Of a DNA stretch of 64,000 nt, positions 1-64,000 are shown one piece after another. Position numbers: made by a program. The stretch lies in NCBI GenBank assembly GCA_963752155.1, contig CAVVXH010000002.1, forward strand, positions 96,001-160,000, written 5' to 3'. How positions within the stretch are numbered: the stretch's first letter is position 1; the number at the start of each line of letters is the position of its first letter. Source of the stretch: an uncultured Parachlamydiaceae bacterium. Its GTDB lineage: Bacteria; Chlamydiota; Chlamydiia; Chlamydiales; Parachlamydiaceae.

Positions 1-3000
1 ACTTGAAAGTTTGGGTTTCAAGTCTAAAGGCGAGTACAATATTCCGATGCGCCTTTATTTTAACAGGTCCGAAGGCATTGATACCAATCTTCATGTTTAT
101 GAAGACAGCCATCCAGAAATCGAGCTTAATCTTCTTTTCAGAGATTATTTGCGTGATCATCCAGAAGTGCGAGAAGAGTATGCGAGTTTAAAAGAAAATC
201 TTTTAAAGGATAGCGCTTCTTTCGAGAAAAGAAACTCAATGTTTACTGGCTATAACCTAGGTAAAGATGCATTTATAAGAAAAGTCTTAAGAGCAGCTAA
301 TTTTAATCGCATTCGCATCATGAAGTGTACACACTATACCGAATGGGAGACAGCTAAGCGATTAAGAAATAAATACTTTTTTGATCCTCTTTCCATTTCA
401 GATCCCTACACATGGACATTTGATCATCCAGAGCATGTTCACTTTATTCTTTATCAGGGGGTTGAAATCATCGGATATGCTCATATCCAATTTTGGCCAG
501 AGCATAGAGCAGCATTGCGAATCATTGTCATTGATGAAAAGTATAGGCAGCATGGATTGGGAAGCCAATTTTTGCAGCTTTGCGAGCAATGGCTGAAAAG
601 GCAAGGGATCAAATCAATTCATGATGAGGCAAGACCGAATGTTGTCAGCTTTTATCGCAGAAACGGCTTTACAGAAATGCCTTTTGAAGATCCTAGCGGT
701 GAACCGCCAAGTATTCATGATGTTGCAATGGGGAAAAATCTATGATCCTTCAAATTAACCAGAATAAGCTTACTGATGATGTCAAAAAGAAAATTTTCAA
801 TGGATTTGGTCAGCAAGCGATCGAATCTACTGGAATAAATGGCCTTAGTGAAGAGCCCATTTCATTTGAGATTTTTGATGAAACGGAATTTGTGGGTGCA
901 ATTGTTGTCCAACCATTCTGGGAGCAGTTACATATCAAATATCTTTTCGTAGAAAAAAACTACCGTGGCCAAGGAATCGCTCGTCTGCTGATGAACCATG
1001 CATTGGAATTTGGGATAAAACGGGGGTACCATTTCGCTTTCGTAGAAACAATGAGTTTTCAAGCTCCAGAGTTCTATCAAAAAATGGGTTTTACGATCGA
1101 ATTTTCAAGGCCAGGATATGCAGAAAACACGACGTTTCACTATCTCAAAAAGTCTTTAAATAATGCTGAAACACGAAAGAAAATTACCAGAATCGGCGTC
1201 TATGGCGTTGTTACGGATGAGGGTAAAACTTTGGTTGTCCGACAGCAACGTGGACCCTATGCAGGTAAGCTCGACTTTCCGGGCGGCGGAATTGAATTTG
1301 GAGAATCAGCAGAACAAGCTATGCGTAGAGAGTTTGCTGAAGAGGTGGCAATGGAATTCGATTCACTTCAGCTGATAGACAATTTAACTGCGATAGTCGA
1401 TGTCTCATGCACCCCATCCAATGAACCTTACGTATTTTACCAAATCGGAATGATTTATCGAGTAAATGGCTGTCGATTGCTAAAAGGTGAAAAACTGGGA
1501 GATTTGCAGCACATTTGGATCGATTTAATGGCGTTATCCGAAGGACAATGCTCAAAATTAGTATGGAAATGGAGGATGATGCAGTGAAAGAGAGTCCTTC
1601 AAATACTACAGATTCATTAACAACATTACCTGAACCAACAGGACCTCATCGTATCGGGACTACGAAATATGATCTTGAGGATGTTTATCGAAAAGATTTT
1701 CAATTTCCTCAAGGAAGATTGATACCGATTCAGATTTATTTTCCAATGGGGCAGGGGAGTCATTCCATTTTTCCGAAAATATTTGAAGAAAGAGCCGCTC
1801 TTGGACCCTTTGAACCTTTAAAAGTAGACGTCCATAGCCAACAGGCAGACCTGTCTCTTTTAATAGGGGATCTGCATCCTGTAATTATCTTGAATCATGC
1901 GAGCTGTGTGGCAATGACAGATTATGCCTTTCTTGTCGAAGATTTAACCTCTCATGGATATGTAGTCATTTCAATTCAGCATGATCTTCAATCCGACGAA
2001 GAGGGGCCTGTATTTTGGGAGGGAAGAAGCTGCTCAAGAAATGCAAAAGTTATCGATAACATTCTCTACGTTTTTGAGTGGCTTAAAATAACCCAAGCTA
2101 CTTTGTTCAATGGAAAGATCGACTTAAAGCGAGTAGGTTTAATAGGACATTCATTGGGAGGCAATTCCTTACTTCTCTGGTCAAATCGTACGCTTGATTC
2201 CTTCCAAAAAGATACTCGATCAGCGTTGCTTCCTCGCGTGGATCAAAATGACGTAAAGGAGTGTCTTGTCTTGATGGAAACAACGAGGTTTTCTTTTCCT
2301 TTCAATAGTCGTTATCCTTTATTTTTTCTTCTAGCAGAAGAACGAGAAGCTTACCACAAGGAAACTGGTTGTTATGAGCAAATGGCTCGAGCAGGACACA
2401 AAGTCCGCTACTACAAAGGATCCACTCATATAAGCTTCATGGATCATGCCTACGTCAATCCAAAACAGCATATGGATTTGAAAGAGGGATACTTTAATGG
2501 GATCTTAGAAGAAAAAAAAGCATTCTTTGAAACTGTTCGTAAAGACGTAAGATTTTTTCTGAAAGAGAGTGGGGTATAAATTTATGTCTGAGCAATCTCA
2601 CAAAGTAATGATTCACTTGATAACAGAGGCGCGGTTCAGCCAGACACCCCAATACATCGATCGCATCGCAATTGGCATTTGTAATGAAGTGTATCGGGTT
2701 GGGTTAAAAGAGCGTGAAGTAATCGCTCGCCTGAGCCACCATGATCGATTTTTAATGGGATCTCACGATCATATCCCAAAATTTAAGGCTTTGGGTATCC
2801 GAGTGCCTGATATTTTAGCCGAAGATTACAGCAAAAATCTGATTCCATTTTCCTACCAAGTCCTGAGCAAAATTGACGGAGAAGATCTAGGACAGGTCAT
2901 TGAGACCCTTTCTGATCAGCAGCTGCAAAATTTAGCCAAAGAAGTTGCCAATATCTTTGAAAAGGTGAGAACCATTCCTGCCTCCGATAAATTTGGGGTT

Positions 3001-63000: not shown

Positions 63001-64000
63001 CTAATTCCTGACATATGCACCTAACCTTTCCATTAGTTCGTTTGTAAAATCATGGTAAGCTTTAGCGCTTGAGCAATTAGGATCGAAATCGAAAATAGCT
63101 TTAGCTGCTTCTTGTGATTCCTTCAATTTAACGTTTTCAGGAATTCGTGTATTAAAGACTTTGTCTCCAAAGAGATCATTAATGGCATCGTAGATTCTTT
63201 TCGAATGATTGGTAGACATTTTGAAGAAAGTGAATAAGACTCCTAGAATTTCAGCGCGATGATTGACCAATTGACCGACTTTTTTATTTGTTCTATTGAT
63301 GGTATCCATGAAATTCTGCATTCCAGCTAGGTTGAAGTAGTCCAGCCCAACAGGCAATATAATATAATCAGCTGCCAATACAGCATTTGTAAGAAGAGTA
63401 CCAAACGTAGGGGAGGTATCAATGATTATATAATCATAGGTGAGATCGACTAGTTTTGAACGAAGAGCGAATTCTTTAGCTTGAATTTGAGCTAGTTTGA
63501 CATCTGCTACGGCTAAAGATACATCGGAGGGGAGAATGTGAAGACCTTCTATATAGGTGTCTTGAACGATATCCTTGACTTCGCATTCTTCTTGGCAAAG
63601 CAATTCAGCAATCGTTTGACGATTTTCCGTTTTGATTCCTAGGCCTATTGTGGAGTTACCTTGTCGAGCGTGAGGGTCAATTTGACACACCAGAAGGATC
63701 TTTTGAGGGGACATATTTCGCAGAATTCAAGCTGCAGGAAGTGTATGAATTAAATGAAGAGCGAGTTCGCATTCGTGTAATCAATCATGAAGGTAAGACA
63801 GTTCCAGTAGAATTCTCTAAGGTCCAAGGCTCATACGGACCAGAGATTCATGTAAAATGCCAGGATAAGAGATTAGAACACTACTGGATGCAATACTTCC
63901 CTTTAAAACAAATCATCAAAGAGCTGCCAAAAGGGCAACAAAATCAATCTATCTCAGAACATATTGGGTCATCTCTTTCATGCAAAGTTGGATTGGCCAT

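Follow-up and report, generated by a model that had tools for sequence, protein, structure and literature searches.

The closest described systems are two circular plasmids, in which this family is known as a free circle: plasmid 1 of Criblamydia sequanensis CRIB-18 (NZ_LK031773.1, 89.5 kb; Bertelli 2014, PMC4208316) and the 92-kb plasmid of P. massiliensis (Benamar 2017, PMC5583166), both analysed by Koestlbacher et al. 2021 (PMC7846284). In the portions of these papers available to us, a 7% share of proteins is called 'phagic', some gene families form a 'phage group', and the whole plasmid is said to have probably been transferred between two families, Parachlamydiaceae and Criblamydiaceae, with parA/pgp5 and pgp7/8 among the genes common to both plasmids (PMC7846284). 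In the available parts of PMC4208316, PMC5583166 and PMC7846284 a terminase, a tail tip protein, Gp33 and a putative prophage are named; neither a tailed phage with its full genome nor a phage-plasmid nor a copy in the integrated state is described there. Neither Criblamydia nor LK031773 occurs in 10 supplementary files of a phage-plasmid census (PMC10879196), and the entries listed in the accessible part of another (PMC12977533) hold no Criblamydia; the chlamydial phages in one of its tables are small ones of Chlamydia, 4.5-4.9 kb in size. Phage-plasmids such as P1, N15 and SSU5 likewise unite a full virion set with plasmid replication and partition on a free circle, and have a conserved phage part and a variable accessory part (Pfeifer 2021, PMC7969092, as far as available).

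The core of the 7.5-kb Chlamydia plasmid consists of the Pgp1 helicase, Pgp5 ParA and Pgp7/8 integrases; the element described here has a recombinase 49-50.5% identical to these integrases and also a ParA, but it is 12 times larger and carries a phage genome. The chlamydial element resembles P1 in its contractile tail, in its size of nearly 90 kb and in having a tyrosine recombinase next to a lox-like site. It differs from the P1 type in its lack of ParB, its chlamydial-type plasmid core and its obligate intracellular host, and the likeness drawn is one of gene content and organisation. To our knowledge, all described chlamydial phages are small ssDNA microviruses, and no paper on a tailed chlamydial phage was found in a literature search.

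The stretch of DNA analysed (the window, 64,000 nucleotides) corresponds to positions 96,001-160,000 of contig C2 of an uncultured Parachlamydiaceae bacterium. The left end of the element and its head and tail genes (C2:67.9-90.1 kb) lie upstream; within the window are cargo, the integrase, the blocks for packaging, recombination and replication, and the right junction (Table 1). By alignment to NZ_LK031773.1, plasmid-like sequence was confined to C2:65704-159664, that is, 93,961 bp ending at window position 63,664, and not the 101 kb given in a preliminary description. The backbone of ~46 kb in the circular order of the Criblamydia plasmid, also reported there, was recovered in blocks that sum to about 46.15 kb, with identities of 80.5-94.8%. 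We consider it probable that the window holds the larger part of one 93,961-bp phage-plasmid copy, made chromosomal by one reciprocal illegitimate crossover at TGT between parA and a STAND gene. The element has three components. A phage-type genome of ~44 kb, contractile-tailed, supplies head, tail, terminase and methylase genes and the exonuclease/RecT pair; a plasmid module comprises the primase-helicase, ParA and the Pgp7/8-type recombinase together with the 28-bp site belonging to it; and cargo fills five fixed variable regions.

Table 1. Features located in the window (window positions).
Feature	Position	Strand	Evidence or remark
Cargo region A, between portal and integrase	1..16330		No match to Criblamydia plasmid; Pfam
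Tyrosine recombinase, chlamydial plasmid Pgp7/8 type, 327 aa	16330..17313	-	PF00589 6.7e-21
Two small conserved backbone ORFs beside integrase	17304-17564, 17682-17963	-, +	82%, 65% aa to plasmid CDS 20956, 21372
28-bp lox/dif-like site, intact	17501..17528		11-bp inverted arms, 6-bp spacer
Small variable region E	18006..20234	-	Kinase-like protein and AraC/GyrI-like regulator; AbiE pair there in Criblamydia plasmid
Large terminase	20380..21730	-	phrog_979 9e-142; 94-100% aa to plasmid in two frames, break near codon 40
Probable small terminase	21685..22212	-	Position only; 97% identical to plasmid CDS 24519
DNA methylase, ParB-like N-terminal domain, more than one frame	22196..23513	-	phrog_498 3e-114, phrog_620 5e-24
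DUF1064 protein	23682..24023	-	PF06356 6.7e-13; phrog_190 4e-26, labelled Holliday junction resolvase
Cargo region B, 21.9 kb	24137..46008		No plasmid match; Pfam
Conserved recombination block, small ORFs included	46009..54346		93.8% identical to plasmid; collinear in free 44-kb phages
HNH endonuclease	48583-49059	-	PHROGs; within recombination block
PD-(D/E)XK exonuclease	50665-51222	+	PHROGs; within recombination block
RecT-like annealing protein	52451-53374	+	PHROGs; within recombination block
Cargo region C	54347..57262		GNAT 54928-55410 (-), alpha/beta hydrolase 56064-57131 (+)
Conserved 548-aa protein, function unknown	58479..60126	-	96-97% aa; two frames, break near codon 421
Primase-helicase, 781 aa	60123..62468	-	DnaG zinc ribbon, Toprim, DnaB C-terminal domains
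Conserved 166-aa protein between helicase and parA	62514..63020	-	96% aa to plasmid
parA 3' part, codons about 42-260	63001..63664	-	Pfam AAA_31 match starting at profile position 33
Right junction, element/chromosome	63664..63665		TGT present at both junctions
Second half of interrupted ankyrin-patatin-NACHT (STAND) gene, start	63665..64000, continuing to contig 163,175	+	Pfam

A complete virion and packaging set was recognised in the element with PHROGs: portal, MuF, protease, major head, neck, terminator, sheath, tube, chaperone, tape measure, hub, wedges, fibres and large terminase, all collinear with complete free phages. The scores given earlier were reproduced (portal 5.9e-91, major head 2.9e-94, sheath 5e-106, terminase 9e-142, exonuclease 6.9e-22, RecT-like protein 1.8e-19). 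The large terminase belongs to the T4-type family (Pfam Terminase_6N/6C) and is single-frame in all six of the other copies that hold it. Neither the candidate small terminase nor the 166-aa protein had a family match in Pfam, PHROGs or NCBIfam; the ORF at the small-terminase place in the free phage G408 matches phrog_309 at 7e-7. The two small ORFs beside the integrase were without Pfam or PHROG match. No lysis genes or repressor were recognised with Pfam and PHROGs, many small ORFs being without match, and a weak endolysin-family match corresponded to a LysM-type tail protein. A simple script found no CRISPR array in the genome.

Collinear head, tail, portal, terminase, ParB-methylase, DUF1064 and exonuclease/RecT genes were observed in uncultured myoviruses of 41-45 kb from IMG/VR (G408-G412), which have the same head gene set and identities of 75-78% for the capsid (equal length), 67% for the terminase and 63-64% for the portal. 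The five complete relatives all measure 41.1-44.5 kb (CheckV 98-100%, one with terminal repeats; G408, 44,492 bp). Unlike the chlamydial elements, these phages have their own replication initiator, their portal directly adjoins the terminase, they have no cargo regions and half the size; ParA and integrase were not detected, and the primase-helicase had no match in any of these five free relatives.

Plasmid replication and partition genes, the primase-helicase and parA, are present beside the phage-type genes. The Criblamydia plasmid has the same backbone in the same order, with structural proteins 97-100% identical and the same recombinase, ParA and primase-helicase (the last 96.9% identical); the copy studied here differs in being chromosomal and not a free circle, in its cut parA, and in cargo that is wholly different in the two big regions. 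The DnaB-type helicase domain matches 111 Chlamydia plasmid records at less than 60% identity and is at most a candidate orthologue of Pgp1. The recombinase is 97.6% identical to that of the Criblamydia plasmid, 59% to that of Waddlia, 57% to that of Simkania and 49.4-50.5% to those of the Chlamydia 7.5-kb plasmids, one of them annotated pGP8-D, in agreement with the likeness noted before; the matches to the Chlamydia, Waddlia and Simkania plasmid integrases cover 95-97% of its length, in line with a Pgp7/8-type recombinase.

The plasmid homology is circularly permuted in the contig, and the alignment stops at 62575 and resumes at 62573 (plasmid coordinates), inside parA. The first 41 codons of this gene, including the P-loop, were located at contig 65,704-65,825, 94 kb from the 3' part, and parA is whole in the eight other copies compared. 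On the chromosomal side, a single paralog of 1,036 aa (C6:286652-289762) is matched end to end by the two ORFs that flank the element, C2:64937-65703 and C2:159665-163175, residues 15-257 of the left flank with paralog residues 71-312 and residues 3-718 of the right flank with 309-1027. Both junctions are within parA and within this chromosomal gene, with three shared bases, and from the two junctions the two genes can be reconstituted. Beyond them, the left-hand neighbours TopA-SWIB, DprA and IspD and the right-hand neighbours PheT and SMC confirm that the element is physically within a chlamydial chromosomal contig, a link firmer than metagenome binning. The first half of the interrupted gene was found in 0 of 30 relatives and its uninterrupted form was seen only in the in-genome paralog. 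The genus mates were too distant for the empty-site search: the neighbouring Na+/H+ exchanger was 62% identical in amino acids in one mate and not found in the other, and the ankyrin neighbour gave weak, many-copy matches only.

These positions are consistent with a free circular element that would have undergone a single reciprocal crossover at the three shared bases, parA against the ankyrin-patatin-STAND gene; the exchange would have split both genes in two and left the element within the chromosome. An IS-mediated cointegrate was rejected, as both junctions abut halves of one gene and not insertion-sequence copies. No candidate for an enzyme of the crossover was identified, which counts against this reading.

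The preliminary description had the element bracketed by a 32-bp direct repeat that served as attachment site. The repeat was confirmed at C2:64090 and C2:165048 (31 of 32 alike), as was its uniqueness: with up to 4 mismatches allowed, the genome holds no further site, the closest other one differing at 5 positions. Also confirmed was its being missing from both genus mates at up to 3 mismatches; at this last threshold it was found in none of five related genomes (the two genus mates and three of the same family). This real and unique repeat, together with an integrase gene, speaks for a 101-kb temperate phage integrated site-specifically, with the repeats as attL and attR, but we regard that reading as hardly credible. 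The repeats sit 1.6 kb and 5.4 kb outside the plasmid-like sequence; the intervening DNA represents the two halves of one chromosomal locus and, once the 94 kb are taken out, one gene. Even with 7 mismatches allowed, the repeat is missing from all 10 other copies, among them four circular contigs and the Criblamydia plasmid, which is complete; it is therefore not the attachment site. No attL/attR-type repeats with a matching attP in the free form were found at the element ends, and no repeat longer than 16 bases, apart from the 32-bp one, links both sides.

The position of the recombinase also argues against integration by this enzyme. Either junction is about 46 kb away from the gene and its 28-bp site. 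The site, 188 bp ahead of the integrase start, is intact and occurs at a single place in the window (0 expected in 100 shuffles). It is conserved in six of nine copies, at 64-205 bp upstream of the gene, and is found twice in the genome, the second time at C12:82326. A full 16-base palindrome was discarded as the recombinase site, since the actual site contains a 6-base spacer. Of the earlier reading, one tailed phage-plasmid that lives as a plasmid or integrated, the tailed-phage and plasmid hybrid, its membership in the Criblamydia plasmid family and its place within a chromosomal contig here were upheld, and integrase-type integration was not. The crossover was presumably independent of the recombinase, and the integrated copy would be incapable of precise excision. 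By analogy with other chlamydial plasmids, the recombinase could act in dimer resolution or cargo handling.

The integrated state is read from one contig of an error-prone assembly (completeness 80%), and a free plasmid falsely joined into a chromosomal contig has to be weighed. Many indel errors are present, the other copies examined all look free, and neither junction is supported by an independent read or contig: at most 0.21 of the sampled words of the junction region were present in public runs, the four runs aligned cover the plasmid part only and no chromosomal side, the right-junction 31-mer had 0 matches in metagenome contigs, and the left-junction 31-mer had 0 in metagenome contigs and 0 in viral contigs. 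At the right junction, contigs from 3 of the 4 runs continue through as intact parA. An artefact, however, needs two errors at the identical plasmid base and the identical chromosome base, with no shared repeat at the junctions other than TGT, and no second contig with intact parA of the element type or an intact copy of the interrupted STAND gene was found in the assembly. We judge a false join improbable and retain the illegitimate crossover.

The shortened genes of the earlier report were observed again (portal 418 v 485 aa, terminase 398 v 449 aa, MuF split). Considering that the essential rpoB of the same assembly is in seven frame-shifted pieces, errors of assembly probably account for the frameshifts of these three genes, and the decay proposed as an alternative cause was not borne out. 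A decaying prophage, in which real mutations after trapping had broken the genes for terminase, portal, MuF, methylase and the 548-aa protein, would agree with a trapped element that has a dead parA and is free to decay, with the remnant of a second element on C12, and with the breaks being in this copy only, five key genes being single-frame in every other copy that holds them. It is nevertheless very improbable: each of the nine length differences that break the frame, spread over six genes of the element, is an additional base in this contig, rpoB shares this bias, stop-codon substitutions and deletions are absent, and the comparison with the Criblamydia copy gives a dN/dS of 0.069. At window 58863, in the 548-aa gene, the extra base is missing in contigs of all four public runs aligned.

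The family is wider than published. The capsid gene was found in 12 of 401 Chlamydiota genomes, this one included, with 10 others 94-100% identical, and a capsid protein at least 99% identical in one of 72,556 plasmid records, as had been stated. The backbone is indeed common to chlamydial families, and transfer between families was already proposed in the available part of PMC7846284. Gene order is the same in all copies. Four of nine rebuilt contigs are circular (55- or 77-base terminal overlaps; 73.5-96.5 kb), the test being void for G257:C3, whose last 697 bases were outside it; among the non-closed copies, G195:C3 (scanned for integration over 1-50 kb) and the scanned parts of G158:C3 had no genes other than those of cargo type. 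The majority of the other copies come from metagenome bins, of which two carry a non-chlamydial label, and hosts are assigned softly except for this contig and the carriers in culture. For structural genes, dN/dS is 0.041-0.085 (7 pairs, about 6,100-6,350 codons). Copies have exchanged fibre genes and have cargo in common, and their block identities are mosaic. Given this strong purifying selection, particles would still be made.

The chlamydial elements measure 73-98 kb and the free relatives 41-44 kb, the circular ones being 1.65-2.2 times the complete relatives. They may exceed their own capsid, and because of this difference whole-genome packaging appears doubtful. The dN/dS of 0.04-0.09 favours infectious whole-element particles, and the size excess speaks against them. 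It is possible, though unlikely in our estimation, that these elements are not self-transmitting phages and are plasmids keeping a particle module that packages headfuls of ~44 kb, as in gene transfer agents or transducing systems, the replicon having outgrown the capsid. The sizes of the five complete relatives and of the four circular elements, the common head gene set with a capsid of the same length at 75-78% identity, a terminase of the T4-type family, the mosaic block identities and the cargo common to several copies all point in that direction. Against it, sequence cannot tell capsid size and one capsid protein can build two head sizes (P2/P4); selection on all head, tail and packaging genes equally fits a true phage, and the fibre genes are swapped as in phages under host-range selection.

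Gene transfer agents have no replication of their own and are not mobile; the likeness to them and to lateral transduction by non-excising prophages would be in a particle capacity perhaps smaller than the encoding replicon and in an integrated copy that cannot be excised. More speculatively, and in our view rather unlikely as a whole, the capsid would have been outgrown and the element would be a plasmid-borne transducing system of ~44 kb headfuls. Backbone pieces and cargo would then be shuttled between chlamydiae of different families sharing an amoeba, the element's exonuclease/RecT pair would rebuild replicons, and the non-excisable copy would package adjacent chromosomal DNA (lateral transduction), a route of chromosomal gene exchange for obligate intracellular bacteria. 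The mismatch between element and relative sizes is directly testable, there being two cultured carriers. The phage-plasmid in this contig gives one concrete route for plasmid genes into the chromosome, and the element is a possible starting point for genetic tools in environmental chlamydiae.

The cargo occupies fixed places, as had been noted, although five variable regions and not four were counted (seen in at least 8 copies). The part of region A in the window is the right-hand 16.3 kb of about 20.5 kb starting at contig 91,840. It contains GNAT acetyltransferases, NUDIX, APH-type kinases, two DUF2608 proteins, a beta-lactamase-fold protein, an LRR protein, PEP mutase, an Ada-type methyltransferase, a metallophosphoesterase, SDR, SnoaL and a YhcG nuclease, and parts of it are 85-95% identical to cargo of the nearest copy (G369:C19). 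Region B holds many GNATs, NUDIX, SDR, alpha/beta hydrolases, HIT, a split ABC exporter, DHDPS-like and HAD proteins, a pentapeptide protein, an APH(9)-like kinase, an ANT(6)-like adenylyltransferase, a methyltransferase and P-loop kinases, its NCBIfam matches all being under curated cut-offs. The place of region C is taken by an arsenic operon in the Criblamydia plasmid.

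Seven blocks of contig C2, summing to about 46.15 kb, were matched by blastn to the 89.5-kb plasmid of Criblamydia sequanensis CRIB-18 (NZ_LK031773.1). All of them run in one orientation and in the circular order of the plasmid at 80.5-94.8% identity, and the backbone of about 46 kb given in the preliminary description was thus recovered. Its PHROGs values for portal, major head protein, sheath, terminase, exonuclease, and RecT-like protein were also reproduced in a scan of 58 ORFs, which in addition detected protease, neck, terminator, tube, chaperone, tape measure, hub, wedges, and fibre-type proteins. 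Head and tail functions are encoded upstream of the window, whose own content (Pfam, 76 ORFs) is mostly cargo, together with integrase, packaging, recombination, and replication blocks. The Criblamydia plasmid has been reported to carry 7% of proteins of phagic origin (Bertelli 2014, PMC4208316), a related circular plasmid of 92 kb, from P. massiliensis, has been described at about two copies per cell (Benamar 2017, PMC5583166), and a "phage group" has been defined on both plasmids by Koestlbacher (2021, PMC7846284), a source that also infers that a whole plasmid moved between families and that a prophage was transferred, and that documents other plasmid genes integrated in chromosomes. In a literature search made partly on titles and abstracts, no account of these elements as phage-plasmids, or of any tailed chlamydial phage, was found.

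Backbone blocks, variable regions, and located features (window positions refer to C2:96,001-160,000)
Feature	Position	Length	Identity to Criblamydia plasmid
Backbone block		24.6 kb	94.8%
Backbone block		1.5 kb	83.6%
Backbone block		1.2 kb	90.1%
Backbone block		3.8 kb	91.0%
Backbone block		8.4 kb	93.8%
Backbone block		0.36 kb	80.5%
Backbone block		6.4 kb	91.8%
Variable region A		1.8-22 kb across copies	
Variable region B		16-53 kb across copies	
Variable region C		2-7 kb across copies	
Variable region D		1.6-8.9 kb across copies	
Variable region E		0-2.4 kb across copies	
ParA codons 1-41, incl. P-loop	C2:65,704-65,825		
ParA, remainder	window 63,001-63,664		
Two tandem fibre-type genes (outside window)	C2:67869-69626; plasmid 64734-66494		98-99%
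28-bp site	window 17,501-17,528		
DUF7380 + DUF4209 protein	window 24916-26772	618 aa	
ABC exporter, two ORFs	window 31574-33081		
Aminoglycoside-enzyme-like cluster	window 36867-39303		
32-bp repeat, left (outside window)	C2:64090-64121		
32-bp repeat, right (outside window)	C2:165048-165079		
rpoB, 7 pieces	C6:10172-13898		
Second element remnant	C12:79696-84544		
28-bp site, second copy	C12:82326		

The homology to the plasmid ends with the last block at 62,575 and begins with the first at 62,573, both within plasmid parA (blastn). The parA gene of C2 is accordingly found in two parts, one at each end of an insert of 93,961 bp; TGT is present at the left and right junctions alike, and the DNA beyond either junction is not plasmid-like. 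The 101 kb attributed earlier to the element therefore includes a surplus of about 7 kb that is chromosomal. On the left flank an ORF runs from C2:64,937 up to the junction, and on the right one an ankyrin + patatin + NACHT/NB-ARC ORF begins at the junction and is followed by a TPR gene. Considering that both pieces align on complementary parts of a 1,036-aa paralog on C6 (residues 71-312 with the left piece, 309-1027 with the right), they are the halves of one gene, hereafter the STAND gene. The more distant neighbours are TopA-SWIB, DprA, and IspD on the left-hand side and, on the right, PheT and SMC. Both broken genes are explained if a 94-kb circle carrying an entire parA recombined once, reciprocally, with a chromosome whose STAND gene was still uninterrupted. 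We infer a crossover that looks illegitimate; the evidence for the integrated state comes from one assembly.

Two other routes into the chromosome were weighed. The 32-bp direct repeat that had been taken to bracket the phage does exist, 31 of 32 positions alike, and no further site turns up in the genome when up to 4 mismatches are allowed. If it were an attachment site, free copies should carry it; with up to 7 mismatches allowed it was detected in none of ten other copies, among them the complete Criblamydia plasmid and four contigs that are circular, nor in any of five related genomes at up to 3. The repeat encloses about 7 kb of chromosome, the STAND/TPR locus, made up of the ankyrin-patatin-STAND gene, the TPR gene, and small ORFs. 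This locus has a Na+/H+ exchanger on one side and an ankyrin gene on the other, and no recombinase was found in it; the repeat may mark an older island. The second route is the integrase, a member of the Pgp7/8 family of chlamydial plasmids. Upstream of it by 64-205 bp, in 6 of 9 copies, is a 28-bp lox/dif-like site formed by a 6-bp spacer flanked by 11-bp inverted arms, which occurs once in the window (0 expected by chance). Since this site is intact here and about 46 kb from each junction, the recombinase system was not the way in, and an apparently illegitimate crossover is retained.

Six genes of the element (terminase, methylase, a 548-aa gene, MuF, portal, and one AbiEi) occupy more than one reading frame in comparison with the Criblamydia copy, which could be taken for decay. 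All nine frame-breaking length differences are extra bases in C2. Terminase and methylase are single-frame in 6/6 other copies holding them, and MuF, portal, and the 548-aa gene in 8/8; one extra base of C2 was missing from the contigs of all four public runs compared. The assembly (3.13 Mb, completeness 80%, in only 22 contigs) has rpoB in 7 pieces with shifting frames, five of whose six shifts fit one extra base by arithmetic on the piece coordinates, which points to many single-base errors across the whole assembly, so that short or split gene calls in this genome need caution. We read the breaks in the element genes as assembly errors, not decay. The ABC exporter, split into two ORFs in the cargo and whole on C12 (603 aa, 85.6% identical), may be another such error.

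Counting the present one, 12 out of 401 Chlamydiota genomes have the major head protein; in ten others it was 94-100% identical, spread over five families in the classification of the search tool, and in one further genome, of a sixth family, 52% identical. Nine contigs of other copies were rebuilt for comparison, and four of them (73.5, 91.4, 93.2, and 96.5 kb) are circular as judged by terminal overlaps of 55 or 77 bases. All backbone genes recur among the other copies, with parA whole in 8/8, and the gene order is identical in all: recombination block, region C, the 548-aa gene with helicase and ParA, region D (fibres), tail, head, portal, region A, integrase, region E, terminase with methylase and DUF1064, and region B. 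The structural genes gave dN/dS of 0.041-0.085 (7 pairs); the major head, tube, and hub proteins match those of the Criblamydia copy at 100% identity, with dS of 0.08-0.20. Metagenome bins are the source of most copies, and two of these carry non-chlamydial labels; hosts beyond the cultured carriers and C2 are therefore uncertain. Two capsid genes, 94-96% identical, were seen on an 88-kb contig of a Verrucomicrobia-labelled bin (L077) and a 3-kb contig of a Desulfobacteraceae-labelled bin (L083); both probably belong to copies of the chlamydial element that were binned wrongly. A 39.2-kb contig from another chlamydial family (G300:C2; L021, L031, L062) is a distant relative with a capsid 52% identical and tail and baseplate proteins 25-50% identical; neither the plasmid module nor the integrase had a match on it.

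The cargo is, in parts, 85-95% identical to that of the nearest copy, and the 50-kb region B of another copy (G195:C3) holds small-molecule-modifying enzymes of the same kinds. A cluster in the window encodes a pentapeptide-repeat protein, a kinase resembling APH(9)-Ia (433 bits against a curated cut-off of 680), and an adenylyltransferase resembling ANT(6) (171 bits against 450). All are relatives of enzymes that modify aminoglycosides and score under the curated cut-offs. The DUF7380 + DUF4209 protein lies at the edge of region B, and the G195:C3 cargo includes a mitochondrial-carrier-family protein, a eukaryote-type transporter (L042:4710-5459). The two paralogous fibre-type genes are also present in G369:C19; in six other copies other sequence takes their place, which indicates that members of the family exchange the host-recognition module.

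Related capsids were found at 73 loci in IMG/VR. Five of these records were tested, with capsids 74-78% identical, lengths of 41.1-44.5 kb, CheckV completeness of 98-100%, and terminal repeats in one; the primase-helicase had no match in any of the five. Two of the phages examined are collinear with the chlamydial backbone, with the portal directly adjoining the terminase; one of the two has its own replication initiator, and neither integrase nor ParA was detected in that one. The chlamydial elements are 1.65-2.2 times the size of these complete relatives. They thus look like the product of a 44-kb phage, in round figures, which first gained the plasmid core of chlamydiae and later the cargo. 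Among GenBank phages even the nearest are distant (capsid 42%, sheath at most 41% identical).

A remnant of a second, related element was observed on C12 (L167, L168). It holds an AAA gene 74-78% identical to that of the Criblamydia plasmid, both small integrase-side ORFs, the second 28-bp site, region-E-like DNA, and a fragment of a putative small terminase (90% aa); neither integrase nor head genes were found within it. Around it are phosphoketolase, P-type ATPases, efflux parts, and an AbiEii fragment, all of cargo type, adjoining housekeeping genes, which suggests an older chromosomal capture.
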